64,000 nucleotides of DNA from the IMG/VR virus record IMGVR_UViG_3300042013_000067, positions 192,001-256,000 of that record; one strand, written 5' to 3'. Source of the stretch: a virus (lineage: Duplodnaviria; Caudoviricetes). Positions 536-33,886 of this stretch are shown here, piece by piece. Below the pieces are notes generated by a model. That model was not told where the DNA came from. It searched no databases and saw only the letters and a program-made list of their open reading frames with translations. The number at the start of each line of letters is the position of its first letter. Position 1 is the stretch's first letter. A program made the position numbers and the translations under genes.

Positions 536-1191
536 ACTTCTTTAATATTGAGGGGCCGTGGGCAGGCATTGGGAGCCGTGAGGCACCGATGTCTGTTCAG
601 CTCCTTATGGCCCGTTACGCCCGTACAGCGTATGACCTAAAACTGGGTCGGTTGCACAGCGGTGATGCCATCGCTTCAGACTTTGCATTCTGGGTAGGGG
701 CACGACTGTCCAAGAACTTCTTCGAACTAGGGGCAAAGATCTTCTTGTCGAAGAACGGTTACCAAGGGCGCTGGCATGATGATCAGCTTGGCTTTATCAA
801 TGCCAAGAGTCTCGACCCCATCAAGTATGAAATCGCGGGTAAGCTGGCTTATGAAGCACGTAAGGGCTTCTACGGACTCGGCACTGGCGGTAAAGAATTA
901 GTAACACGTAACGCATTCCAGTTGTTAGATGAAGACCTCGAACACGCAGTGTCCAAATGTTTATACTGGGGTATTCCTCAAGGTAAAACCGAGAAAGTTC
1001 GCGGTGGTACCAACGTAGGGTTACAACTAGCAATCCTTTTCGATATTCCTCGGATGAACCTTTTCCATGAAGAGAACCAAAGGCTCCTCGAAGAGTGGCT
1101 GGCGCAAAAAGAAACAACCGAAGCCTACCCTAAACACCTCGACCGAATTATCGATTCCCGTCGTCAAGATCACCCGTGGCCAGGCTTCTGA
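523..1191 (+). CDS. SLOG-superfamily (DprA-like) protein
   Basis: Motifs AGIGSRE, HSGDA..SD.AF, TRN..Q.L..DL, GGT...LA....IPRMNL typical of phage DprA/SLOG-like proteins. Confidence 0.7.
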   Translation: MCGIDFFNIEGPWAGIGSREAPMSVQLLMARYARTAYDLKLGRLHSGDAIASDFAFWVGARLSKNFFELGAKIFLSKNGYQGRWHDDQLGFINAKSLDPIKYEIAGKLAYEARKGFYGLGTGGKELVTRNAFQLLDEDLEHAVSKCLYWGIPQGKTEKVRGGTNVGLQLAILFDIPRMNLFHEENQRLLEEWLAQKETTEAYPKHLDRIIDSRRQDHPWPGF

Positions 1192-1207
1192 AGAAACCGC
1201 CCTGGAC

Positions 1208-1393
1208 ATGCTGTTTGTGCGGGACAACCTCGTGATGTCGATCGACACCGAGAAGACATACAGCGCCAATGAAGTCATCGACTACGTGGATCAAGGCATC
1301 GAAGGGGTTCTTCGAGTCGTAGAGAAAGGAGCGGAACCATGGAGCCTAACAATCGACATCTGTCAAGCCTACTTCGACAAAATAAACTCATAA
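1208..1393 (+). CDS. small hypothetical protein (start uncertain)
   Basis: 3' part of ORF 1067..1393 fills the gap between genes. Confidence 0.45.
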   Translation: MLFVRDNLVMSIDTEKTYSANEVIDYVDQGIEGVLRVVEKGAEPWSLTIDICQAYFDKINS

Positions 1394-1839: not shown

Positions 1840-2336
1840 ATGATGTTATCCAGCAGCGGATTAAGAAACGTCGGGAAGAACTGGTTAATGAAGTGGCGTC
1901 ATTTCGTGAAGGGTTGGTAATGCCACTGGAGGCTCTGGTGCGTAAAGCAACCAGTGGTTTCCATGTGTTCCAGTACCCGAACCGGACCCGCCCGGCCCTG
2001 ATCTATTTCACGGTAGGTGAAGGGGTACAGGACGCTCTTCGACGGGTATGCGCCGTTATGGTCTCAGCATACAAAATGCAAGGTTTTGTACTGGATACTG
2101 AGGAAGGGTTACGACACGCTACCGTAGCCCTTACGGAGATGGTAAAGCGTATCGGCTATGACCTGCGCATTATCCATCTGCTGGATGCACGTGAGCTGAT
2201 TCGTACCGCGATCGAGTTACATGAAGTCGATGGTGGTCGGGTGGTAGGCATTGCTATTGACGAACTAGAGGACAAACACCATGACGGTAGTAGCAATGCA
2301 GCACACACTGCTGGAAACGATAGCAACGCCAACTGA
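1836..2336 (+). CDS. hypothetical protein, paralogue of 1339..1839
   Basis: ATGA overlap with the upstream gene; shared motifs. Confidence 0.75.
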   Translation: MNDVIQQRIKKRREELVNEVASFREGLVMPLEALVRKATSGFHVFQYPNRTRPALIYFTVGEGVQDALRRVCAVMVSAYKMQGFVLDTEEGLRHATVALTEMVKRIGYDLRIIHLLDARELIRTAIELHEVDGGRVVGIAIDELEDKHHDGSSNAAHTAGNDSNAN

Positions 2337-2985
2337 CCTGATGAAAGCAATGCAGGCGGCGAAGCATCCGTACTATCAATCGAGCGATACCAGCGACAGC
2401 TTCAAGGACATCGGTGCGTTTCTCGAAAGCTGGAAAGACTATGATATTGACCTGAACCGGGTGATCCGTTGGGACATCCGTAATGTCGCCGACGATTTCC
2501 CCGATGCAGTAGACATGGAATCTTCGGACATCGACTACTACGGTCCGTGGGGTACACAGTACATCGATATTCATTACGTAGCTCCACGTAAAGGCCATAC
2601 GTTCAGCAATCGTATCCTCAACCTAAAACCAGGTGATATGCCGCGCCTCTACGCGTGGTTGAAGAAGCATTGGGAATACACACAGCTGATGTGGGATCCC
2701 ATCCCTACAACTGTCTACGTACCACCTGAGTCTCCCCGCAGTCGGTTCCTCGACAAGATTAAGTCGATTGTTGACTACCAGACTGTTGCACCAAGTGGTG
2801 ATGTCGGGCATGTCCATGATAAGCTCAGCGCCAAGATCCACACTGTGGCCCACAACATCCTTGAGGTACTCGACCAAGATTACATTTTGCTGGAGAAAGC
2901 GGATGATGATGGACAACCGTTGGATGTCTCTCTGAACATTGCCGGTGAACTGGCCAAGACTTACTTTGACGAGATCAACACATGA
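2281..2985 (+). CDS. hypothetical protein with C-terminal family-X domain
   Basis: 234 aa; C-terminus ILEVLDQDYILL..NIAGELAKTYFDEINT matches the 10998-12318 family. Confidence 0.8.
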   Translation: MTVVAMQHTLLETIATPTDLMKAMQAAKHPYYQSSDTSDSFKDIGAFLESWKDYDIDLNRVIRWDIRNVADDFPDAVDMESSDIDYYGPWGTQYIDIHYVAPRKGHTFSNRILNLKPGDMPRLYAWLKKHWEYTQLMWDPIPTTVYVPPESPRSRFLDKIKSIVDYQTVAPSGDVGHVHDKLSAKIHTVAHNILEVLDQDYILLEKADDDGQPLDVSLNIAGELAKTYFDEINT

Positions 2986-4808: not shown

Positions 4809-5795
4809 ATGTCTCGATTTACAGTGTTGTACCACCGCGGTTGCAACGATGGCTTAGCGGCCGCTTGGGCAGCACGCGAGGTTTTGAAGGACCAAGCTAT
4901 CTACCTGCCATATCAATACGGTGATGAGATTCCAGTCGTGTGCTTGGGTACGCATCTGATCCTAGTGGATCTGTCGTTGACCCAAGACCAGATCAGTGAG
5001 ATCTATGATCAGGTCGTGATGTCGATCATGGTTGTGGACCACCATGCCAGTGCTGAGCGGGAGTTGATGGGTCTGGTTACGATGCCGACGTTTGACGCTT
5101 ACCGTGCTGCGATCAACTCACCGACTGGCTACAAAGTCTTCAAACTGTTCGATCAAGAACACTCCGGCGCCGTACTGAGCTGGGCGTTCTTTAATAACGT
5201 CAATACGCTTCGGTCGTACAACGAAGAATGGGTACATCGCATACCCAAGGCTTTGCTGTATATCGAAGACTACGACTTGTGGCGTCATGTCTATCCAGAG
5301 AGCAAAGCAGTTAATGCTTGGCTGATCAACGGCGGCGCCTCAATGGATCGCGTTAGTGACATGATCGACTATAAAGGCGACATTCACGAGAAGGTGCTTG
5401 AACTCGGCAACGCCATGATCAAGTACGACGAGAAGATTGCTCGCAGTGTGATCCGTGACTATGCTGAGGAGTACACATACGGCGACGGCACCATGGTCGT
5501 GATCAATGCACCGCACCACCTGCGAAACATGATCGGTGATCTACTGTCCTCGAAGTATTTGTTCGTGGTCTGTTACACCCGTCGTAAAGACCGGACCATA
5601 TTCAGCCTGCGCTCTCAACACTTTGATGTGAGTCCGATCGCTGAGCAGCATGGTGGCGGTGGGCATCGCAATGCCGCTGCATTCTCGGTACCGAATGCGC
5701 CTAACTACAACCTGCTCGCTCTCATGAGTAAGCCGTCGTTCATGTCTCGCCTGCGCATGGCGTTAACGGTTCTTTTCCCACGGAGATCCAAATGA
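4809..5795 (+). CDS. DHH/DHHA1-family phosphoesterase
   Basis: YH..CNDG, LVDLS, VVDHH, DYDLW, FSLRS and GGGGHRNAAAF motifs. Confidence 0.9.
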   Translation: MSRFTVLYHRGCNDGLAAAWAAREVLKDQAIYLPYQYGDEIPVVCLGTHLILVDLSLTQDQISEIYDQVVMSIMVVDHHASAERELMGLVTMPTFDAYRAAINSPTGYKVFKLFDQEHSGAVLSWAFFNNVNTLRSYNEEWVHRIPKALLYIEDYDLWRHVYPESKAVNAWLINGGASMDRVSDMIDYKGDIHEKVLELGNAMIKYDEKIARSVIRDYAEEYTYGDGTMVVINAPHHLRNMIGDLLSSKYLFVVCYTRRKDRTIFSLRSQHFDVSPIAEQHGGGGHRNAAAFSVPNAPNYNLLALMSKPSFMSRLRMALTVLFPRRSK

Positions 5796-5992
5796 AACAA
5801 GCCCCAAATCAGTTTAATGCGACCCAGTTGTTCCGTGACGGTTGGCCCATCCACACTGAAGTGGTGGTGAACGATGTGAAAGTCATCGTACCCGCTCGGC
5901 CGCTCGGTCTAGATACCATCCCTAACCGCTTCAAGCAAGCGTGGGCTGTGTTTACCGGTAAAGCTGACGCTCTGTACTGGACCGGTCAGTAA
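5792..5992 (+). CDS. small hypothetical protein
   Basis: 66 aa, ATGA overlap, followed by a terminator. Confidence 0.75.
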   Translation: MKQAPNQFNATQLFRDGWPIHTEVVVNDVKVIVPARPLGLDTIPNRFKQAWAVFTGKADALYWTGQ

Positions 5993-6031
5993 ACGGCATA
6001 GAGGAGCCCACCGAGGCTCCTCGTGTTATTC
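5993..6031 (+). terminator. nested-palindrome terminator
   Basis: ACGGCATA-GAGGAGCC-caccga-GGCTCCTC-gtgTTATTCC right after a stop codon. Confidence 0.75.
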
Positions 6032-7877: not shown

Positions 7878-8603
7878 ATGTCTCACCGTGAACACATCTT
7901 GGCTTTTATCGGCTCTGAACTTGCTGTAATCCGCACTAATGGCGAAAACACCCCGGAAGCCTTCCGGCACAATGCTTTCACCCCACGCACGGATTACATC
8001 GATAACGTACTGTTCAACAACATGCAGTACGCGACTGAGATTACTTGGCGTGATACCGCTGAGCTCTGGCCGGAAGATGCTGACCCGCTGTTGGTAGCAC
8101 CATGCCGTCACCGTCAAATCCTGCCATATGCACCACTGACCCAGATCGCCGAAGGCATCAAGCGTTATGCGGTCTACCAGCGTGTGAAAGGCATCGGCGA
8201 ATCGCGTCTGTTGCGCGGTCACTCGATCGGTTTCGGTGGCCATCTGACTGGCAAATATGTCCAGTACGACGACCATGGTGGTATCATGGTCAAGCCGTCT
8301 ATCCATGCTGGCCTCAAGGCTGAAATGGGTGAAGAGTGTCACGTCGATATCGATGCACCAGGTGTGCAGGTGATCCCGTGGGGCTACATCAATTCGGTTA
8401 TGTCGCCGGTTGATGCGCTGCACTTCTCCTACGTGGTTGAAGTTCAAGTGCCTGCTGACTACCCCGTACTGGTCAACGAGCAGGGCCTGAGCTTCAAGGG
8501 CTTCTTCACCAAAGAAGAAATCATTCAGATGCACGAAGAGCTGCCGAAAGAAGTTGGTTTCGAAAGCTGGTCGCGTATGCTGATCGAACACGGTCTGCAA
8601 TAA
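7878..8603 (+). CDS. NUDIX (MutT-like, COG4112-type) hydrolase
   Basis: RQILPY..Y.VYQR.KG.GE.RL...SIGFGGH, E.GEE Nudix box remnant, GYIN...VDALHF; AAGGA RBS. Confidence 0.75.
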   Translation: MSHREHILAFIGSELAVIRTNGENTPEAFRHNAFTPRTDYIDNVLFNNMQYATEITWRDTAELWPEDADPLLVAPCRHRQILPYAPLTQIAEGIKRYAVYQRVKGIGESRLLRGHSIGFGGHLTGKYVQYDDHGGIMVKPSIHAGLKAEMGEECHVDIDAPGVQVIPWGYINSVMSPVDALHFSYVVEVQVPADYPVLVNEQGLSFKGFFTKEEIIQMHEELPKEVGFESWSRMLIEHGLQ

Positions 8604-8665: not shown

Positions 8666-9055
8666 ATGGATTATAAGAAGGTCCGTTTCAACAGTGCTAA
8701 GCTGGAGTTCAGGGAAGAGCAACGTGGCTCTCTTACGATCCTCACCGCACGGAATCCAGAACTTAAAGCCGTCGTCAGGACACCGACGTTTGAAAGCCGC
8801 GGCTTTCTCTGTGAGTTCGTCGGTACCAAACACACATATGTCTACCAGGTAGAACCAGTGGGTGATACCGGGATCAATGCGCTGATTGCATTGGCTCAAT
8901 GTTTCTTTGTATCCAAACACTTCGACCATGTCGGTGATTTGGTGCAGCTCTGTTATACCCACTTGGGTGAGATCTATCGACACACGTTCGAGCGTGACCC
9001 TAAGTACGATCAACCTATCCTCATCTACCTCGATCAACTAAATGCTAAGGAATGA
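8666..9055 (+). CDS. hypothetical protein
   Basis: 129 aa ORF coupled to the sspB-like gene. Confidence 0.75.
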   Translation: MDYKKVRFNSAKLEFREEQRGSLTILTARNPELKAVVRTPTFESRGFLCEFVGTKHTYVYQVEPVGDTGINALIALAQCFFVSKHFDHVGDLVQLCYTHLGEIYRHTFERDPKYDQPILIYLDQLNAKE

Positions 9056-9507
9056 ACATCATGGATCAAAAGGCCTATAACCGCAAGGTTGTTGAACATC
9101 TCTTCGACCTGCTGGAGACCGCATGCGCCGATCGGTGGCACATGGTGTTCGACATGGTGTTCATCGAGGAGAAGCAACAGCTGGAACAGTTCGCTCAGGA
9201 TAATGTCCTGATCTTGAACTTCCACCCCTTGGCGTGTCGTAACATGCACATCGGTGATGAGTACATCACGGTCAATATGAAGTTGCAGGGCATGCCTATG
9301 CATCTGGTATTGCCATTCACCGCTATCCGCGGGATCCATTTGGAACTGGCCGAAGGTAACATCACTTTCGTGCCAGCTCAAGTGATGGTGATGATCGCCA
9401 TCGATGCACCGACACCCACAGGGGCGCACGATGAACCTAAACCACTGCCAGAGAACGTCATTCAGATGTTCGGCAAGAATCCTAAACCCACCACTAAAGA
9501 GAGCTAA
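9052..9507 (+). CDS. sspB: SspB-like (ClpXP adaptor homologue)
   Basis: FAQDNVLILNFHPLACRNMHIGDEYITVNMKLQGMPMHLVLPFTAIRGI aligns by eye with the SspB core YARDGQIVLNIAPRAVGNLELANDEVRFNARFGGIP. Confidence 0.75.
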   Translation: MNIMDQKAYNRKVVEHLFDLLETACADRWHMVFDMVFIEEKQQLEQFAQDNVLILNFHPLACRNMHIGDEYITVNMKLQGMPMHLVLPFTAIRGIHLELAEGNITFVPAQVMVMIAIDAPTPTGAHDEPKPLPENVIQMFGKNPKPTTKES

Positions 9508-9509
9508 GA

Positions 9510-10934
9510 ATGCGTCAGCTACTTGACCTCATGCAAGATATCCTCGACAACGGGGAACACAAAGACGACCGTACTCAGACTGGCACACTGTCGGTCTTTG
9601 GCCGAATGATGCGTTTCGATATTTCCGGCTTCAAGATACCTTGGGTTACTACCAAGTACGGTCATCCGGAAAGCATCATCCGTGAGCTGAAACTGTTCGT
9701 GAGTGGCACCGGTGAGATTGACTATCTCGCTCAGCACAACATCACCATCTGGGACGAGTGGGTTAAACAAAAATCTCGCGTCTACGCCACATTGACGGTG
9801 GCTGAGCGCTTGGCCAAGGTCAAGAAGAAAGATCGTGAAGCCGTTAACGCCGCTTTCGATCTGTTCCGTGAATCCCTCTACTCGGAAGACGAGGTTGCTG
9901 GTTGGGAACTCATGCCGTTGACTGGCAAGTACCGTGCGCCTGACATCAACGAGCATCTGCACAAGTGGATCGACGAGAACACCGAAGTGTCCCGTCAGAA
10001 GCTGGTCAAGGGTACGCTCGGTGGTGTGTATGGTGTGCAGTGGCGTAACTGGCCGGTCTCGAAAGAAACCCGTTCGTTGTCGCGCCGTAGTGCAGGTCGT
10101 GCGGTGGAAGCGATTGGTCAGTTCGACGAGATCAAGTCGCGCTTTGCTGATCCAACCGACTTCGATCTGTGGCTGCTCAAGGCCACTGGTTCTGAAGTCA
10201 TTACCCCAGAGACTGACGTCGATGACGGCGTGATCGCGGGTTGGTTGGTTGAACACGGTTATGCCCTGACTGAAGACATCACGGTCAGTTCCATCGATCA
10301 GATCGCCAAGGCTATCTACAAGCTGAAGAACGATCCGAACAGCCGTAGCATTATCGTTTCGGCTTGGAACCCGGCTGAACTGGCAGACATGGCTCTGGAG
10401 CCATGCCATACGTTGTTCCAGTTCTACAGTAACAATCTGAACAAGCGTCAGTTGGTGGATGTGATCTGGCGTTCGCCGCTGTTGCGTGTGGCGCTGATGC
10501 AGCTGTTGCCTCCAAACGAAACCGAGCGTGACTATGCGAAAGACGATCTGATCGCTCTGGACATGTCCGTACTGCGTGATTGGGCTGCTGATAAAGGCCT
10601 GCCTACCCGTGGTCTGAGCTGCTCGCTCTATCAAAGATCGGCGGATGTGTTCCTCGGCGTTCCGTTTAACATCTCCAGCTATTCGCTGCTGACCAAGATG
10701 TTTGCTCAGGTCGTGAACATGGAGCCGCTGGAGTTCATCTGGACCGGTGGTGACGTCCACATCTACAACAACCACATGGACCAGGTCAAGCTGCAACTGT
10801 CGCGTGAACCGAAGGAAGGTCCTTCGATTCTGCTAAACGCAGAAGTGACTGAGATCGATCAGTTCGAGTACAAAGACTTCGAGTTGGTCAACTACACCTA
10901 TCACCCGTCTATTCCCGCTCCAAAGGCGGTATAA
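9510..10934 (+). CDS. thyA: thymidylate synthase (ThyA type, enlarged by three insertions)
   Basis: DDRTQTGT, IWDEW, VYGVQWR, IDQI, SAWNP, PCH..FQF, YQRSAD.FLGVPFN, GDVHIY. Confidence 0.96.
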   Translation: MRQLLDLMQDILDNGEHKDDRTQTGTLSVFGRMMRFDISGFKIPWVTTKYGHPESIIRELKLFVSGTGEIDYLAQHNITIWDEWVKQKSRVYATLTVAERLAKVKKKDREAVNAAFDLFRESLYSEDEVAGWELMPLTGKYRAPDINEHLHKWIDENTEVSRQKLVKGTLGGVYGVQWRNWPVSKETRSLSRRSAGRAVEAIGQFDEIKSRFADPTDFDLWLLKATGSEVITPETDVDDGVIAGWLVEHGYALTEDITVSSIDQIAKAIYKLKNDPNSRSIIVSAWNPAELADMALEPCHTLFQFYSNNLNKRQLVDVIWRSPLLRVALMQLLPPNETERDYAKDDLIALDMSVLRDWAADKGLPTRGLSCSLYQRSADVFLGVPFNISSYSLLTKMFAQVVNMEPLEFIWTGGDVHIYNNHMDQVKLQLSREPKEGPSILLNAEVTEIDQFEYKDFELVNYTYHPSIPAPKAV

Positions 10935-10943
10935 CCGGTAAGG

Positions 10944-10975
10944 CGTCAGGGGTTCGCCCCTGACGTTTTTCTTTT
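10944..10975 (+). terminator. rho-independent terminator
   Basis: CGTCAGGGG-ttcg-CCCCTGACG followed by a U-tract. Confidence 0.85.
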
Positions 10976-10997
10976 ATTTCGTCTATGAGGTTACAAC

Positions 10998-11318
10998 ATG
11001 GAAATTTCCATTAAGTTACCCGACCCACTCCAGATCGTCAGAGAAGGACTGCTCGAAGAATTAATCAATACAGCTCGTTTCAGTTCCGACTGGGTAATGA
11101 GCAATAAGGAACTCCCCGATGACGTCCGTGAGTTGGTACACTACACGGCTGTTACTGCGGTCAGTAACGTGCTAGACGTTCTAGATGGCAACACGGATCA
11201 GGGACGGTATATACTACTGCCCATGAGTGTGGTCACGGATTTTACCAATGATGTCCCGACTATGACCGGTAACTTGTCGGAAGCCTTCTATGATCTCTAC
11301 GAGCGTATCAACAACTGA
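10998..11318 (+). CDS. family-X paralogue 1 (unknown function)
   Basis: PDPL..R N-terminus, VLDVLDG, YILLP, GNL....YERINN. Confidence 0.85.
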   Translation: MEISIKLPDPLQIVREGLLEELINTARFSSDWVMSNKELPDDVRELVHYTAVTAVSNVLDVLDGNTDQGRYILLPMSVVTDFTNDVPTMTGNLSEAFYDLYERINN

Positions 11319-11326
11319 GGTGTGTC

Positions 11327-11668
11327 ATGCAGGTATACATCGATATCCCTGATCCACTGGACCGATACCGCAAGAAGTTGGTATCACAGATCGCCGATGC
11401 CACTGAAACAGTGGTTGAACGATTGGCACCACTGCCTGAGTCACACGAGCGTGAACTGGTACGTAATGCGGTAACCCACGCTACCAACGCAGTACTGCAA
11501 GTGTTGGACGGTGGGCAAGAGCTCCTTAGTCCGAGTTATGCACCGGGCTATGTGGTACTACCTGTGTCCATGGTTAAGTGTGAAGGTGAACGTCCTAACC
11601 TCGCCGGTGGATTATCCGAGGTATACATGGACCTCTTCGAATACGTCAACGATGGTGATGACGAATGA
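11327..11668 (+). CDS. family-X paralogue 2
   Basis: PDPL..R, VLQVLDG, YVVLP, NLAGGL...FEYVND. Confidence 0.85.
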   Translation: MQVYIDIPDPLDRYRKKLVSQIADATETVVERLAPLPESHERELVRNAVTHATNAVLQVLDGGQELLSPSYAPGYVVLPVSMVKCEGERPNLAGGLSEVYMDLFEYVNDGDDE

Positions 11669-11985
11669 ACCTACGGATTAACTTCCCTGATCCGCTACAC
11701 CAAGCACGGATGCATTTCATCGACGAGGTCTTGGACATTCGTGATGGTGCCATCCAACTGGCCGCAGCGGGTGGTATGGATGGTGAGTACCTAGGCCATG
11801 CTACTTTACTGCTCAACCACACCATCGAAAACATCCTGACTGTAATCGACGGCAACCCAAAGCAGGGTAGCGGTTACTTGATGGTTCCTAACTTCATGAT
11901 CGAGGAGGGTCAGACTTTCCACAACATGGCTGGCGACTTGGCGCAGTGTTTTAATTCACTGTTCGATGTGATCAATTTGAGGTGA
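11665..11985 (+). CDS. family-X paralogue 3
   Basis: PDPL..R, ILTVIDG, YLMVP, NMAGDL...FDVIN. Confidence 0.85.
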   Translation: MNLRINFPDPLHQARMHFIDEVLDIRDGAIQLAAAGGMDGEYLGHATLLLNHTIENILTVIDGNPKQGSGYLMVPNFMIEEGQTFHNMAGDLAQCFNSLFDVINLR

Positions 11986-11988
11986 TGT

Positions 11989-12318
11989 ATGGAAAAAGAA
12001 TCCCCACTGGGTATGGCTATTAACAAGGCGGCTGAACGAGCCACCGGTGAGCCAGACCAGATGCATGATCGGCGGGTGGATTTGATTGCCGCTGCTCTCG
12101 ATGTACGGGATGATGTCTACGAAGACGTCATGTTGCAATTCCCACCCGAGCTGCACGAGCCTGTTTGGAAAGCAATCACCGCGGGTGTCGGTGGCACCTT
12201 AGGTATTCTCGACAAGGACTATCTGGTCCTACCGAAGGAGTACCGCGAAGGTGATGTGAATATGGCGGGTGATCTCAAGCAGATCTTCTCCACGATTTAT
12301 GACGACATCAATACCTGA
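11989..12318 (+). CDS. family-X paralogue 4
   Basis: PDQM..R, LGILD, YLVLP, NMAGDL...YDDINT. Confidence 0.85.
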   Translation: MEKESPLGMAINKAAERATGEPDQMHDRRVDLIAAALDVRDDVYEDVMLQFPPELHEPVWKAITAGVGGTLGILDKDYLVLPKEYREGDVNMAGDLKQIFSTIYDDINT

Positions 12319-12365
12319 CGGCATAAGCCTGCCCTATGGGGCAGGCGTTATGTTCTTTTCTTTTA
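12318..12365 (+). terminator. nested-palindrome terminator
   Basis: ACGGCATAA-GCCTGCCC-tatg-GGGCAGGC-gTTATG plus U-tract. Confidence 0.8.
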
Positions 12366-12420: not shown

Positions 12421-13023
12421 ATGACTATTGCAGAGTTGCGTGATCGTCTCATCAGCAAGATGGGTGCGGTATACCGCTGTAATGATGGTGCACATCAGAT
12501 TCAGCATTTTAATGCAGTTGAGGTGTGTGGTAATGAAATCAACAATCGCTTGAAGTTGGGGTTTGATCCGAAGCTGATAATGTTGGTTGCGTATCTGCAT
12601 GACATGTTTGCGTGGTCGCGGGTCAATCACCACTTGCTGAGCTCGGAGTTTGTACGCACTACGGATTTTGAGCTGTTGGCAGATCTGACTGATGTACAGC
12701 GTTCGATGGTAGCGGCGGGTTGTAAAGAACATCGTGCTTCTTTTACGGGTGAGTTCAGCTGGGCATTCAGTGAGCTGATGAATGCGGCTGATCGTGAACT
12801 GCCTGGGAATGTATCTGCCATGTTGGAGCGTGCGATTCAGTATCGCGTCGATAACCTAGGTTGGACTGATTCGGAAGAATCACGTGCTGCGGTATATGAC
12901 GATGCAGTAGCCCATATCAAAGAGAAGTTTGGTGACGGTGGGTATGCTCGCTATCCAAAAATGTATCTGGAATGCTTTGCTCCTGAATTGGAACAACAGC
13001 GCATCGATATCGCTAACTTGTAA
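12421..13023 (+). CDS. HD-domain metal-dependent phosphohydrolase
   Basis: H...H, AYLHD, HH, EHRAS, AADR motifs; AAGGAG RBS. Confidence 0.85.
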   Translation: MTIAELRDRLISKMGAVYRCNDGAHQIQHFNAVEVCGNEINNRLKLGFDPKLIMLVAYLHDMFAWSRVNHHLLSSEFVRTTDFELLADLTDVQRSMVAAGCKEHRASFTGEFSWAFSELMNAADRELPGNVSAMLERAIQYRVDNLGWTDSEESRAAVYDDAVAHIKEKFGDGGYARYPKMYLECFAPELEQQRIDIANL

Positions 13024-13039
13024 GGAGGTATATGTAACC

Positions 13040-13387
13040 ATGCGCCCAGTATCTTACGAAGTAAACCAGAAACATGTTGACGAACCTATACCGGGTGATT
13101 ACTGGGACGAGATGTTGGTGCTCTACCACGTGGTGCTTAAGGTACTGCCTAACGGCAATCGGGTTATCGCCGAGCGGGATCGTACTGTGACTGACGGTCA
13201 GCGTCCTGATCTATCCCAAGCTTTCGAGATCACTAAAGCAGACCATCGTAAGAAGGTTACTTACAGCGTCGATAAGCTCGGTTTCGTGGCTTGTGTCACC
13301 ACAGGCAACAAAATAGCGCTAGGTTGGATTACCGAATGGGCTACTGAGTTCGGTGGCCGTTATAAAGAGCTGGCTACTTCAGAATAA
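13040..13387 (+). CDS. hypothetical protein (homologous to the N-terminal domain of 31992..32864)
   Basis: AAGGAGG RBS region; NQ.H...P.PGD.W.E....VV..VL.NGN motif. Confidence 0.8.
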   Translation: MRPVSYEVNQKHVDEPIPGDYWDEMLVLYHVVLKVLPNGNRVIAERDRTVTDGQRPDLSQAFEITKADHRKKVTYSVDKLGFVACVTTGNKIALGWITEWATEFGGRYKELATSE

Positions 13388-14292: not shown

Positions 14293-14338
14293 CGGCATAG
14301 ACAGGGAGCTACGGCTCCCTGCTCTTATTTCTTTTTTG
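14292..14338 (+). terminator. nested-palindrome terminator
   Basis: ACGGCATAG-a-CAGGGAGC-tacg-GCTCCCTG-ctcTTAT plus U-tract. Confidence 0.8.
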
Positions 14339-14354: not shown

Positions 14355-14885
14355 ATGAATTTCGATGACGCCTGCAAGAAATGTCCACCGGGTTACTCTA
14401 TCAAATCCCGTAACTGTGGCTGGAACGAGCATTACTGTCAATACGGTCGTGACCAGAAAGGTAACCTGTATTGGACAGCGGGTGGTACGGTCGGTGGCCA
14501 CCTTACTCCAAAAGATACCGTATCGGCACGGAATGGCGGTACTGATTACGAGATTTATAACTGGGGTCAGCGCGAACCTGCAACCAACTTACCTACTTTT
14601 GAGGAAGCATCTGAGCAGATTCGACTCAACTCAGTGGAGACCCATCGTAATACGCTGATTAATAAGATCCATGAAACAGTCACTACTAGGATGCAAGACA
14701 GTATTACCGCTGGTGTAGATCCGACAGTAGCCCAAAGTTTAGTCTACGGCACTACACGGGACATCCTTGGTCTGCTCGACACTAAAGTCCGGTTCGAACC
14801 AGTCTATACGGTATCCAGAAACAAGTATGCTGCGCCAAATTTGGCGGGTGGTTTGCTGGACCTGTTTGACAAGATCAATGGTTGA
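14355..14885 (+). CDS. hypothetical protein with C-terminal family-X domain
   Basis: C-terminus ILGLLD...NLAGGLLDLFDKING. Confidence 0.75.
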   Translation: MNFDDACKKCPPGYSIKSRNCGWNEHYCQYGRDQKGNLYWTAGGTVGGHLTPKDTVSARNGGTDYEIYNWGQREPATNLPTFEEASEQIRLNSVETHRNTLINKIHETVTTRMQDSITAGVDPTVAQSLVYGTTRDILGLLDTKVRFEPVYTVSRNKYAAPNLAGGLLDLFDKING

Positions 14886-29199: not shown

Positions 29200-29766
29200 A
29201 TGTCAGATTCTAACGAAACCTTCGGCGCCAATGCTACAGCAGTACCATGCAATCCACTCGGCGCGTACAAGCTGGGTGACCATGAAGGCGATAGGGCGCA
29301 AAAGGACATCGTACCGTTCCAACTGACTATCATCGACCTGCATGAGTTGGTCACCGGTAGTATCGCTGATAAACGTCGCTTGGCTATCGCACCAGAACGC
29401 ATGGGTCGTGCTCTGATGGCATATAACCGTGCGATCGGTGAAGCGATTCTGGAAACCAAGACTTACACCGTGCTGATGATGACGGTTACGTTGGATCAGG
29501 CCAAAGAGGTCGAAAATCTGGTCTTCCAACAACCGACACTGGGTATGTCTATGGGTATGCCCCCAGGGCGTGCCGGTGGTTACATTGGTGCACAGCAATT
29601 GCAGTTCGCCGTGTTCTCTGACCTGACCCAACCTGGTGTTCATATCAGCCTGCATCCGTACGTGTGTCAAGGTTTGGGTGGTGTGGGTGAAGGCGCAATG
29701 ATTAACATCGCCCTAGGTCTGCTGTTAGGTGAAGACCAGAACATCGGTCTTGGCTTCGGTAAGTAA
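29200..29766 (+). CDS. hypothetical protein
   Basis: AAGGA RBS, 188 aa, followed by a terminator. Confidence 0.8.
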   Translation: MSDSNETFGANATAVPCNPLGAYKLGDHEGDRAQKDIVPFQLTIIDLHELVTGSIADKRRLAIAPERMGRALMAYNRAIGEAILETKTYTVLMMTVTLDQAKEVENLVFQQPTLGMSMGMPPGRAGGYIGAQQLQFAVFSDLTQPGVHISLHPYVCQGLGGVGEGAMINIALGLLLGEDQNIGLGFGK

Positions 29767-30002: not shown

Positions 30003-30302
30003 ATGAACAGTAAACTACCATTGACTTCTGTTGAAGAACTAGAAGAAGTAATGGAGCTGATTGGAGACACGTTCTATACCTGCCTTTCCTTTAATCGGGA
30101 TAAGGCTGTCAGTACTGCCACTCAAGAAGGGATGTCTGAAGAACGAGCTCGGTTGATCAAGGATTCAGTTAACGCGGGTGTGCGTGCCACACTGTCTACC
30201 ATTGAAGAACTCAATGGAGAGATTCGGTTTAAGACCCGTGGTGTCACCGCTATCTTAGCGGGTGATCTTGTCCGTGGTATGTTCGATGAAATCAATAATT
30301 GA
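30003..30302 (+). CDS. family-X-related protein
   Basis: AGGAGG RBS; C-terminus LAGDLVRGMFDEINN. Confidence 0.8.
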   Translation: MNSKLPLTSVEELEEVMELIGDTFYTCLSFNRDKAVSTATQEGMSEERARLIKDSVNAGVRATLSTIEELNGEIRFKTRGVTAILAGDLVRGMFDEINN

Positions 30303-31991: not shown

Positions 31992-32864
31992 ATGCCACAT
32001 ACTTCTCGTTTTGCTAGCGCTACGCTAAACCAAACCCATTTCGATAACCCTCAACCCGGCGATGGCTGGCAGGAGCATTTCTGCTATCAGTTCGTTGTGG
32101 TTGAAGTCTTGGAGAATGGGAACTTGGTTGTCGTTCCGGTTCATCGGGTGGAACAAGGTCAGATGGCTCAGTATGCGAAAGCGTATGAGCTTACTCGATC
32201 GCAATTCCACGACGAAGTACATTATCGTCACGGTTCTATGCGTAACAATTTCTTGTTGGATGTCGTACCGGGTCATCATGAAATCGTGACAATCTGGAAA
32301 GATGGATACCAAGGACTGTATTTGACACAAGCTAAATCCACACCAGAACCCATTGTTATCTGTGGGTTTCGTGGTGTGGGTAAATCACAGGTTACCAGCT
32401 TGTGTCAAGGCGAGAAAAAGGCATTGGATGTCTCACCCGGTGGGGATGTTGACTACTACGTGGAATTGGTGACTAAACCACCCGCGGGCTTGGACATCCT
32501 GTTGTTACCCGCCGATCCGATTGTATTGGCTGCATTGAGTTTATCGGAAAAGCGGTACCACATGGTCTATCCACATGTCAGCTTGTGCAGTGCATATTTG
32601 CACCGTATACACCGGCGTGGGGCTAGCGTGGCGGATGTCCACTGTTTTAAAGCGGGTTGGGTTGACGCGATACACGACTGTCACTTTCAACCGGGCTGTG
32701 TGCATTGGCAGCTGCAAGACAAACAGTATCTGGTCGACGTACTGCCACGGATAATCCACATGGAACATCTAGATGACCAAGTGTGGGCAGCGCTAGAGCG
32801 TAAGGTGTTGCGTATGGTCCATCCAACTAAATTGGAAAAACCGACGTTAAGCGTTACGGTATGA
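31992..32864 (+). CDS. two-domain protein: 13040-like domain fused to a P-loop nucleotide-kinase-like domain
   Basis: ICGFRGVGKS Walker A, VYP, RG, W, YL.DVL pattern. Confidence 0.7.
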   Translation: MPHTSRFASATLNQTHFDNPQPGDGWQEHFCYQFVVVEVLENGNLVVVPVHRVEQGQMAQYAKAYELTRSQFHDEVHYRHGSMRNNFLLDVVPGHHEIVTIWKDGYQGLYLTQAKSTPEPIVICGFRGVGKSQVTSLCQGEKKALDVSPGGDVDYYVELVTKPPAGLDILLLPADPIVLAALSLSEKRYHMVYPHVSLCSAYLHRIHRRGASVADVHCFKAGWVDAIHDCHFQPGCVHWQLQDKQYLVDVLPRIIHMEHLDDQVWAALERKVLRMVHPTKLEKPTLSVTV

Positions 32865-33478: not shown

Positions 33479-33886
33479 ATGAGCTTTGACGAAACTGAAG
33501 ACAGTGTTGAGATCGATCCTGAACTCCGTATGGAGGATGCAGAAGACCTCGATGACGATGAGGAAGATACCTCAGCGGCTGCGGTGAAGATTGAAGAACA
33601 ACAGCGCGAGTTCGTGTTGGGTGTTCAAACCCTCATCGAACCATTGATCATCGAGAACCCTGAGCATCGTACGTCGATCGAGACGACGGCTGAAGGCATC
33701 CTCGGCCTGATCGAAGGCAACGGTCGTGACGAGGGTTACATCCTCGTTAAACGTACACATGCAGAACTGGCGATGGTGCCCTGCACCCGTCAGGTGTACG
33801 AAGAGCACCTGCGTGACTTCGTCGATGATGACGGCCTGGATATCTCGGTCGGCCTGTCATCGATGTTTAACGACGTCAATAACTGA
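33479..33886 (+). CDS. family-X protein with acidic N-terminal tail
   Basis: ILGLIEG..GYILV..DISVGLSSMFNDVNN; D/E-rich first ~32 aa. Confidence 0.8.
   Translation: MSFDETEDSVEIDPELRMEDAEDLDDDEEDTSAAAVKIEEQQREFVLGVQTLIEPLIIENPEHRTSIETTAEGILGLIEGNGRDEGYILVKRTHAELAMVPCTRQVYEEHLRDFVDDDGLDISVGLSSMFNDVNN

Follow-up and report, generated by a model that had tools for sequence, protein, structure and literature searches.

The region downstream of thyA in this phage genome raises the question of what the four small, similar genes that follow one another there are, and whether they have relatives elsewhere in the window, i.e. in the whole 64,000-nt stretch of DNA analysed. All four open reading frames of 106–113 aa that the initial annotation had described as adjacent genes 3′ of thyA are present on the + strand: copy A (10998..11318; 106 aa, a stand-alone domain with a pI of 4.1), copy B (11327..11668; 113 aa, also a stand-alone domain), copy C (11665..11985; 106 aa) and copy D (11989..12318; 109 aa). 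Copies A and B are separated by 8 nt, B and C overlap by 4 nt (ATGA, the stop of B and the start of C), and C and D are 3 nt apart. A terminator-type hairpin with a 13-bp stem and a T-run (10940..10969, + strand) directly 3′ of thyA forms the upstream boundary of the array; another with an 8-bp stem, 7 GC pairs and a T-rich tail (12327..12346, + strand) directly 3′ of D forms the downstream one. The array is a discrete, tightly packed unit bounded by these two hairpins, and it is separate from thyA because its own terminator-type hairpin lies between them. In an intergenic k-mer search, the enriched words TTATGCCG and CTATATCA were found elsewhere and none upstream of A, so no temporal class was assigned from sequence. 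The sequencing runs listed for this DNA are of rhizosphere metagenomes, with no RNA run among them.

Membership of the tandem products in one family was supported both by pairwise BLASTP, with E-values of 3e-5 to 2e-13 (A-B 2e-13, B-C 4e-12, A-C 4e-10, C-D 7e-7, B-D 3e-5), and by matches to the phrog_18616 model in the range of 1e-18 to 1e-27 (A 1.6e-27, B 2.6e-23, C 3.3e-22, D 2.6e-18). The matches cover positions 1–106 or 7–105 of the 106 in the model, making A–D full-length members of this PHROG, which holds NOXIFER_249–253. The Noxifer array likewise sits after thyA, and the order of its A-, C- and D-type copies is the same. Copy A is the orthologue of NOXIFER_249 and copy D that of NOXIFER_252; for copy B and NOXIFER_250 the tree does not settle orthology. 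Two features of the Noxifer locus are missing here: a fifth array gene, of the NOXIFER_253 type, and a gene for a dual-specificity phosphatase that separates the array from thyA. Copy B has an acidic GDDE tail past the VN of its C-terminal motif, and in copy D an N-terminal extension replaces the first strand.

Related copies had also been noted at four positions outside the array, and a profile built from A–D and their database matches, with these four left out, recovers all of them and no other among the 1,688 ORFs of the genome. Copy E (2281..2985, + strand; 234 aa; profile E 3.1e-7) carries the family domain at approximately residues 146–234 (2716–2985), behind an N-terminal domain of phrog_7880 that occurs alone in KVP40-like vibriophages. 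Copy F (14355..14885, + strand; 176 aa from ATG; profile E 1.2e-6), the orthologue of NOXIFER_261, has the domain at about 14613–14885 after a Cys-rich N-terminal part. Copy G (30003..30302, + strand; 99 aa) is a divergent stand-alone copy without the YxLLP strand, matched at 7.1e-4, or at 4.3e-5 with a profile omitting G only. Copy H (33479..33886, + strand; 135 aa; profile E 6.6e-3) is the weakest member; its domain (about 33581–33886) follows a very acidic N-terminal tail. It is matched at 8e-10 by a relative, P0020, which the A–D profile found at 2.5e-4 among 1.84 billion proteins. E–H were also the next-best matches when the same 1,688 ORFs were ranked with an HMM made from A–D only. The phrog_18616 model had no match to E–H, and this PHROG excludes the fused and divergent copies.

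One more ORF, at 1067..1393 (+ strand; 108 aa), keeps helix 2 and a YFDKINS end and is without the middle strand. Its HMM match is weak (E 0.1–0.7; hhalign probability 47%, E 2e-4), and it is 76% identical over the full length in Noxifer. By sequence, it is a possible degenerate ninth copy. The earlier count of at least eight copies across the window is supported for eight members, and we consider it practically certain that these, perhaps with the ninth, form a real gene family. No other paralogue set in the genome is as large.

Results of the profile comparisons suggested that the family is very probably homologous to phiKZ gp258 (PHIKZ258; phrog_11061, VOG9824), which has the paralogues gp211 and gp257 and homologues in PhiPA3 (gene 306, AVT69_gp304), 201phi2-1 (gp369) and Phabio (PHABIO_366). 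The family profile aligned to gp258 over 94 columns with an hhalign probability of 96.6% (E 6.9e-10), the A–D-only HMM matched it at 5.8e-6, and a six-frame scan of the phiKZ genome returned gp258 at 3.1e-8 and gp211 at 1.6e-3. The phrog_11061 model matched the window's proteins weakly (C 0.05, D 0.085; A and D approximately 0.04 in the genome scan) and the relative P0018 at 2.4e-5. Models of phrog_18616 and phrog_11061 barely cross-match (E 0.04–0.09); what appears new is that these two separate PHROGs are joined in one family reaching phiKZ. Models of phrog_27353 and phrog_29367 had no match in this genome. The homology to gp258 extends over the whole domain. Shared motifs are LDGN, a hydrophobic strand with P as its last residue, (D/N)LAGEL and, at most 2 residues from the C-terminus, F..VN; gp258 is acidic as well (pI 4.05). 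An LDGN..PGF.LIP core is carried by gp257, and gp211 ends in YFELVNGK. As in the array, the genes of gp257 and gp258 adjoin, and both phages belong to the same phiKZ-like lineage with PhuZ, whose tubulin homologue is encoded in the genome of this phage (E 1e-42). In the phiKZ copies, the insert that separates the strand from the last helix is longer than in those described here, and identity to this family is only about 20%. A literature search retrieved no text giving a function to phiKZ gp257, gp258 or gp211; papers mentioning "gp257" or "gp211" concern proteins of other phages (PhiPA3 ligase, PCH45 PicA).

The family domain has approximately 100 residues arranged as a strand, a long helical hairpin, a second strand (YxLLP) and a helix (NLAGxL...F..IN). 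AF2 modelling with 24 sequences gave a pLDDT of 78 and helices at residues 10–34, 41–62 and 93–105, with the C-terminal third weakest in the monomer; with 4 sequences the model was poor (pLDDT 63). Conserved columns of the 24-sequence alignment are L59, Y71, G91, L93 and N105. The conserved positions correspond to helix caps and ends, the strand and interface residues, with no conserved residues of catalytic type. A conserved scaffold with a variable remainder, which had been proposed for one domain family, was borne out. In this phage most copies consist of the domain alone. As the C-terminal end of longer proteins, it also follows at least five unrelated kinds of N-terminal part, in E, F, P0014/P0019, P0015 and a 421-aa protein of L005. 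A–D and G have a pI of 4.1–4.7 and a net charge of −6 to −11 per stand-alone copy. Acidity is common among small phage proteins.

In agreement with the initial annotation, no well-characterised housekeeping family was matched in Pfam, in Foldseek searches of the PDB and AFDB clusters or in PDB sequence-profile searches. In Pfam, none of the eight copies, nor their fused relatives or N-terminal parts, gave a match above cut-offs, the rows for NNH1, TrwC, AAA_31 and SduA_C all being far below gathering scores. Foldseek gave no match below E 0.2, and the best PDB sequence-profile match, Tctex (E 0.044), was judged to be noise. A BFVD fold search returned the Noxifer paralogues, a weak Phabio row and Acb2/Tad1 rows without a strong match, VIA-align against 48,161 chains reached a best Z of 6.7 with generic helical hairpins, and feature and structure look-ups in the ESM Atlas gave no usable lead. 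As modelled, the strand-hairpin-strand-helix fold is without an informative structural neighbour.

The four array products were then modelled together as a four-chain complex (A+B+C+D), with shallow family alignments and with D as the sole scored partner. D reached an ipSAE of 0.69 (runs 0.74, 0.69 and 0.68) vs. 0.10 for the best control; of 80 solved complexes, 58 attain the ipSAE mark, as do 2 of 110 mismatched pairs, and the test also lets through near relatives of a true partner. The runs had at least 94% of contacts in common, with a partner pLDDT of at least 76. D makes 256 contacts, and all the confident ones are with chain C; these include pairing between strands (C72-D81 and C74-D79) as well as contacts between helices. 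This very large modelled interface contains the conserved LDG, YxLLP and NLAGxL motifs. The model suggests that the domain is a tight, intertwined dimer module, which we regard as likely: a four-helix bundle would arise from two hairpins, with pairing of the YxLLP strands across the dimer and with the last helix packed on the partner. Since the chains are paralogues, the model does not separate a hetero- from a homodimer. The products of the tandem operon most likely pair among themselves, C with D as modelled; we infer the pairing of A with B, as only D was scored. Not all copies need the same pairing mode, because G and the 1067–1393 ORF are without the pairing strand. The subunits had been proposed to dock on one partner; the docking finds support in the C:D model, and the partner there is another family member. 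In E, F and several metagenomic relatives, where unrelated N-terminal domains precede the module, it would dimerise or tether those domains.

Three known systems resemble parts of this model and have no sequence relation to the family. The predicted bundle is like that of histidine-kinase DHp domains, in which a long antiparallel hairpin makes a four-helix bundle with a second chain, but the DHp scores against the family model (Z 6.0–6.6) are no higher than unrelated helical proteins reach, and, unlike DHp/Spo0B-type phosphotransfer hairpins, the family has no invariant or near-invariant His in helix 1 of the 24-sequence alignment. DNA-mimic decoys of the Ocr type are acidic dimers; the family has a low pI and a dimer supported by the model, and neither Ocr nor ArdA nor any other DNA mimic is among the listed fold-search rows. 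The family's extra strands and third helix are missing from DHp, from the Acb2/Tad1 hairpin and from Ocr-type folds.

The age of the family and its C-terminal end each bear on an alternative explanation. Copies arranged head-to-tail, in an array whose length varies among relatives (four here and in L007, five in Noxifer), could be redundant products of a recent "accordion" amplification in an arms race. We give this practically no credence. Identity between copies is only 22–33%, and the A-, D-, F- and H-type groups are common to this phage and Noxifer in the tree and predate their split, with a Noxifer orthologue for each of the A-, D- and F-types. Values of dN/dS are 0.04–0.22, similar to those of neighbouring genes, with dS saturated. 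The copies were found without any DNA-level repeat, and copy A alone matches Noxifer at the DNA level (65%). The identity, dN/dS and orthology results already contradict recent amplification, and the earlier reading of an old, retained expansion stands. The dN/dS values indicate that the family is under purifying selection, and nothing in this analysis argues for diversifying selection. Copy A is unusually diverged, being 57% identical to its counterpart in a close relative vs. 85–88% for neighbouring genes; word-based homologue searches found close relatives only. Copy numbers are 8–9 here and 9 in Noxifer vs. 1–3 in phiKZ-type phages, and in these comparisons the expansion is restricted to the Noxifer-like clade. 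As for the C-terminus, all the endings quoted in the initial annotation were correct, and nearly all members end 0–5 residues from the (D/E)x(I/V)N motif. Such a tip might be a free peptide tag, i.e. a degron or docking peptide recognised by a receptor for import or packaging or by a protease adaptor, for instance an SspB-like protein. A gene for such a protein (9052–9507; Pfam SspB, 1.1e-7) lies two genes upstream of the array and is kept in relatives, and the confident C:D contacts do not include the C-terminal residues of either chain. The tag nevertheless seems highly improbable, and the idea of an invariant docking tip was not supported as proposed: in the models the motif is the end of helix 3, an amphipathic helix (93–105) that packs on the partner, and 1–5 residues follow its N (+1, +2, +3 or +5; B 5, C 2, NOXIFER_253 3). 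In phiKZ gp257 the domain is internal and followed by a long C-terminal extension, and conservation spans the whole 100-aa domain, beyond the tip.

Two further alternatives start from the size of the proteins and from their neighbours. Small oligomers could act as immune-signal sponges that bind cyclic nucleotides or related signals at subunit interfaces, like Acb2, Tad1 and Tad2, with different paralogues covering different defence signals. The proteins are small and probably oligomeric, and their nearest named viral shapes are Acb2/Tad1 hairpin-domain proteins (BFVD rows 9 and 49, E 0.55 and 1.4; an ESM-Atlas match that aligns 59 residues at rmsd 2.2, with TM 0.48 by query and 0.65 by hit). 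Nucleus-forming phiKZ-like phages are described in a preprint as exposed to immunity based on signalling or RNA (bioRxiv 10.1101/782524). We still find sponges very unlikely: PF24729 matches no family member, its sole match in the genome being an unrelated ORF at 13.3 bits (cut-off 27), Pfam scans with E allowed up to 1 listed no such family, no solved Acb2/Tad1 chain is in the best 50 of 48,161, where the top Z is in the generic hairpin range, and the conserved residues at helix ends and in the strand are read as structural. Alternatively, the dimers could be scaffold or regulatory subunits of nucleotide metabolism that tether or regulate enzymes encoded nearby, such as ThyA, a dCMP/dCTP deaminase-like protein, HD and DHH proteins and dual-specificity phosphatases. 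This is unlikely, too, although the surroundings suit it: a DHH phosphoesterase gene (4809–5795), thyA (9510–10934), an RNase H-like gene and a gene for an H..HD-motif protein (12421–13023; phrog_3921) that is HD-like by eye with no Pfam HD match. Among relatives, a phosphatase gene lies between thyA and copy A, a deaminase-like gene adjoins E in one genome, and the linkage is kept in the distant relative L005; phiKZ gp211 is three genes upstream of a dCTP deaminase. Neighbourhood alone is, however, weak evidence in the early regions of jumbo phages. Copies G and H and phiKZ gp257/gp258 do not adjoin such genes, the array is parted from thyA by its own terminator, and no fusion to these enzymes was found among the fused relatives examined.

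On balance, we favour, with moderate confidence, a dimerising domain specific to phiKZ-like phages that would serve as a binder or adaptor early in infection; the binder or adaptor role taken by itself is tentative. A role through protein binding is suggested because the stand-alone copies are strongly acidic, have no conserved catalytic-type residues and would be early by analogy with phiKZ. In that phage, gp257/gp258 mRNA rises from about 26–59 units at 2 min to 250–590 at 10 min (PMC10914614 supplements), and by this analogy, at about 20% identity, the family may be expressed from the first minutes of infection. The inferred function is that of an acidic module without enzymatic activity that would act early in infection as a dimeriser or adaptor. 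Its copies would most likely bind other proteins and serve as decoys or as adaptors in host takeover or regulation, each conserved paralogue probably with its own fixed partner. It is rather doubtful, yet conceivable, that the 8–9 paralogues combine with themselves and with one another into a combinatorial network (a "dimer code"), or that the dimers represent a novel type of decoy or sponge directed at host defence. In such a network of homo- and heterodimers, bare acidic copies would pair with, regulate or re-target the effector-type fused copies; this adaptor system, active early in infection, would be confined to phiKZ-like phages that encode PhuZ and would have phiKZ gp211/gp257/gp258 as its minimal form. 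If the dimers are host-takeover adaptors or decoys, the expansion would mark a diversified early-infection toolkit; if the domain is only a generic dimeriser, it still provides a useful annotation for many hypothetical proteins. In phiKZ-like jumbo phages, which are a major model for therapy and for the cell biology of phages, most early proteins are without an assigned role, and the family now has a testable property: a predicted obligate intertwined dimer that doubles as the C-terminal module of proteins with unrelated domains. The family also reaches phiKZ, where genetics, localisation and proteomics exist: gp257 and gp258 were both detected there by SEC-MS (PMC10449902 source data), and gp258 is found in light Grad-seq fractions (PMC10914614 supplements).

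The virus record is a single contig of 283,622 bp with terminal repeats, of which the window covers bases 192,001–256,000, and among named records Pseudomonas phage Noxifer is the closest (protein identity 36–65%). A gene for a homologue of PhuZ, the phiKZ tubulin (E 1e-42), marks the virus as a phiKZ-like jumbo phage; the sequencing samples containing its DNA are rhizosphere metagenomes.

The four ORFs A (10998–11318), B (11327–11668), C (11665–11985) and D (11989–12318) follow thyA as the initial annotation described; A and B lie 8 nt apart, B and C overlap by 4 nt, and C and D lie 3 nt apart. They are connected by pairwise BLASTP (2e-13 to 3e-5), and all are full-length members of phrog_18616, a group of unknown function. 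The four further copies proposed at that stage, E (2281–2985), F (14355–14885), G (30003–30302) and H (33479–33886), were recovered by a profile of A–D and database hits made without them, at 3e-7, 1e-6, 7e-4 and 7e-3, respectively, with noise starting at about 0.1. With an HMM from A–D alone, E–H were the next-best matches among the 1,688 genome ORFs of at least 45 amino acids. Judged by sequence, H is tied to the family by an independent bridge, the metagenomic protein P0020, which was recovered by the A–D profile at 2.5e-4 (1.84 billion sequences) and matches H at 8e-10. The proposal of one domain family thus holds, and a real, old gene family is well supported. An ORF at 1067–1393, conserved in Noxifer, is called only a possible ninth copy because it retains just helix 2 and the YFDKINS end. 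BLAST clustering revealed no other paralogue set of more than five members in the genome.

The A–D profile retrieved only 18 clusters among 1.84 billion representatives, several of which contain longer proteins where the domain is C-terminal and preceded by unrelated sequence; modular use of the domain at C-termini is well supported. The N-terminal part of copy E (2281–2715) belongs to phrog_7880, whose members in KVP40-like Vibrio phages, one Aeromonas phage and one Arthrobacter phage are free-standing proteins of ~115 aa. That of copy F (14355–14612) carries four cysteines (CxxC...C...C), and its sole non-Noxifer relative in the phage collection, from Alcaligenes phage vB_Af_QDWS535 (E 6e-6), adjoins a family A DNA polymerase.

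Another metagenomic protein, P0018, gave a weak tblastn lead to phiKZ gp258, which is matched by a broader family profile (hhalign 96.6%, E 6.9e-10) and by the A–D-only HMM (5.8e-6). The broader profile matched also gp211 and gp257, and sequence homology with all three phiKZ proteins is well supported. By the same profile, phiKZ has two copies (three with gp257, counted from its direct HMM search score), Phabio two, and PhiPA3 and 201phi2-1 one each, indicating that phiKZ-like phages of Pseudomonas have the family in common and that only the Noxifer-like clade has expanded it. A literature search found no functional study of gp257, gp258 or gp211. Expression is documented for gp257 and gp258: the mRNAs, present at 2 min (59 and 26 units), climb steadily to 587 and 250 by 10 min of infection, and gp258 protein is found in light glycerol-gradient fractions, away from ribosomes (supplementary data of Gerovac et al. 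2024, PMC10914614). Both proteins were detected by SEC-MS (Fossati et al. 2023, PMC10449902). These data show the phiKZ homologues to be real, soluble proteins made early in infection.

A strong hairpin with a T-run (10940–10969) lies 3′ of thyA and a second hairpin (12327–12346) 3′ of D; flanked in this way, the four genes look like one transcription unit, and a discrete, tightly packed A–D operon is well supported. The Pfam match of the 474-aa thymidylate synthase (9510–10934) is split in two stretches, indicative of a large insertion within the conserved fold. The insertion is present also in L007, a 76-kb metagenomic relative (474 aa); Noxifer thyA encodes 522 aa. Directly 5′ of thyA, and kept in relatives, is a gene for an SspB-like protein of the ClpXP adaptor fold (9052–9507; Pfam SspB 1.1e-7), which may be a phage-encoded proteolysis adaptor. 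Other same-strand neighbours encode a DHH phosphoesterase, an RNase H-like protein and a 200-aa phrog_3921 protein, HD-like by eye from its H..HD motif and without a Pfam HD hit. CGGCATA(A/G) occurs at 12319–12327 and 14293–14301, directly 5′ of the terminator hairpins that follow D and a 274-aa gene. Its complement, TTATGCCG, is found genome-wide in 12 intergenic regions vs. 1.4 expected, and CTATATCA in 8 vs. 0.7; both may be promoter or terminator-associated signals.

An AF2 model from 24 family sequences (pLDDT 78, pTM 0.58) comprises a short N-terminal segment of alternating hydrophobic residues ending in PDPL, a hairpin of helices 10–34 and 41–62, an extended YxLLP segment and a last helix (93–105), the least confident part. 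No library searched gave an informative structural neighbour, the matches being generic helical hairpins; DHp domains reached Z 6.0–6.6, and the family alignment contains no conserved His. A joint model of all four tandem products, in which D was scored as the partner, was built from our own alignments in a setup that differs from the tool's calibration. The predicted complex gave an ipSAE of 0.69 (runs 0.74, 0.69, 0.68) vs. 0.10 for the best control; 58 of 80 solved complexes attain this mark, vs. 2 of 110 mismatched pairs. Contacts were at least 94% shared between runs, with partner pLDDT of at least 76. About 250 residue pairs connect D with C: the YxLLP strands pair antiparallel (C72–D81, C74–D79), helix 1 of each chain rests on helix 2 of the other, and each last helix packs against the other chain. 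The conserved LDG, YxLLP and NLAGxL motifs fall within the modelled interface, and the last five residues are outside the confident contacts. An intertwined dimer is thus predicted, in line with the earlier suggestion of docking subunits; homo- and heterodimer are indistinguishable in the model since a true partner's paralogues pass as well. The C-terminal motif had been regarded as an invariant docking tip. This part of the proposal is not supported as stated: the motif stands at differing distances from the C-terminus, and gp257 extends well past it, so that it is better read as the part that caps the last helix and anchors it hydrophobically.

We infer that neighbouring gene products would pair, C with D here and possibly gp257 with gp258, likewise adjacent in phiKZ. 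The bare copies are acidic (pI 4.1–4.7) and could be early protein-binding adaptors or decoys, while in fused copies the module would dimerise or tether the N-terminal domains. The anti-defence role suggested in the initial annotation is hypothetical. Three other functions can be drawn from shape or neighbourhood, with no positive evidence found beyond these. The Acb2/Tad1 hairpin resembles the AF2 model (TM 0.48 by query, 0.65 by hit), a shape that would suit a sponge for nucleotide signals, but no sequence link of the family to Acb2/Tad1 was found. The nucleotide enzymes encoded nearby would fit a scaffold for such enzymes, and the adjacent SspB-like protein a reader of a C-terminal degron. 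The family, though still uncharacterised, is now better defined, with a structural hypothesis concrete enough to test and phiKZ homologues that are tractable.

A recent accordion was considered as well, again with nothing positive beyond shape or neighbourhood in its favour, but the copies share only 22–33% identity. The ML tree recovers the groupings A–NOXIFER_249 (99/95), D–NOXIFER_252 (90/88) and F–NOXIFER_261 (100/100), and places H with P0020 and P0018; these groupings make the paralogues older than the split from Noxifer. The dN/dS against L007 is 0.04–0.22 for the copies and 0.09–0.19 for neighbouring genes, a crude estimate because dS is saturated. The divergence and the orthologue pairs uphold the old, retained expansion of the initial annotation, and the paralogues are a subfunctionalised set rather than an accordion.

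Noxifer has nine profile hits, namely five tandem copies and orthologues of E–H, and L007 has the same four tandem copies as the window. In both, thyA and copy A are separated by a dual-specificity phosphatase gene, whereas the window phage has only the terminator there (10935–10997). This HCxxGxxRS phosphatase adjoins the array in Noxifer (5538–5996 of its locus), L007 (9191–9649) and the more distant metagenomic relative L005. Copy A is 57% identical to its L007 counterpart vs. 85–88% for neighbouring genes, which, together with the absent phosphatase, points to a replacement or deletion at this place. In phiKZ, the dual-specificity phosphatase family protein gp40 (7969–8451 of the locus) adjoins PhuZ and may be the counterpart of the array-side phosphatase.

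Elsewhere in the window, ORF 29200–29766, unrelated to the family, gave a sub-threshold Acb2/Tad1 hairpin Pfam match at 29344–29436 (13.3 bits, cut-off 27), probably noise. A second small paralogue family comprises the BLAST-linked genes 12929–13387 and 31992–32864 as well as L005 3321–3830, with the common N-terminal motif (I/Q)PGD(Y/G)W(D/E/Q)E...VL.NGN.
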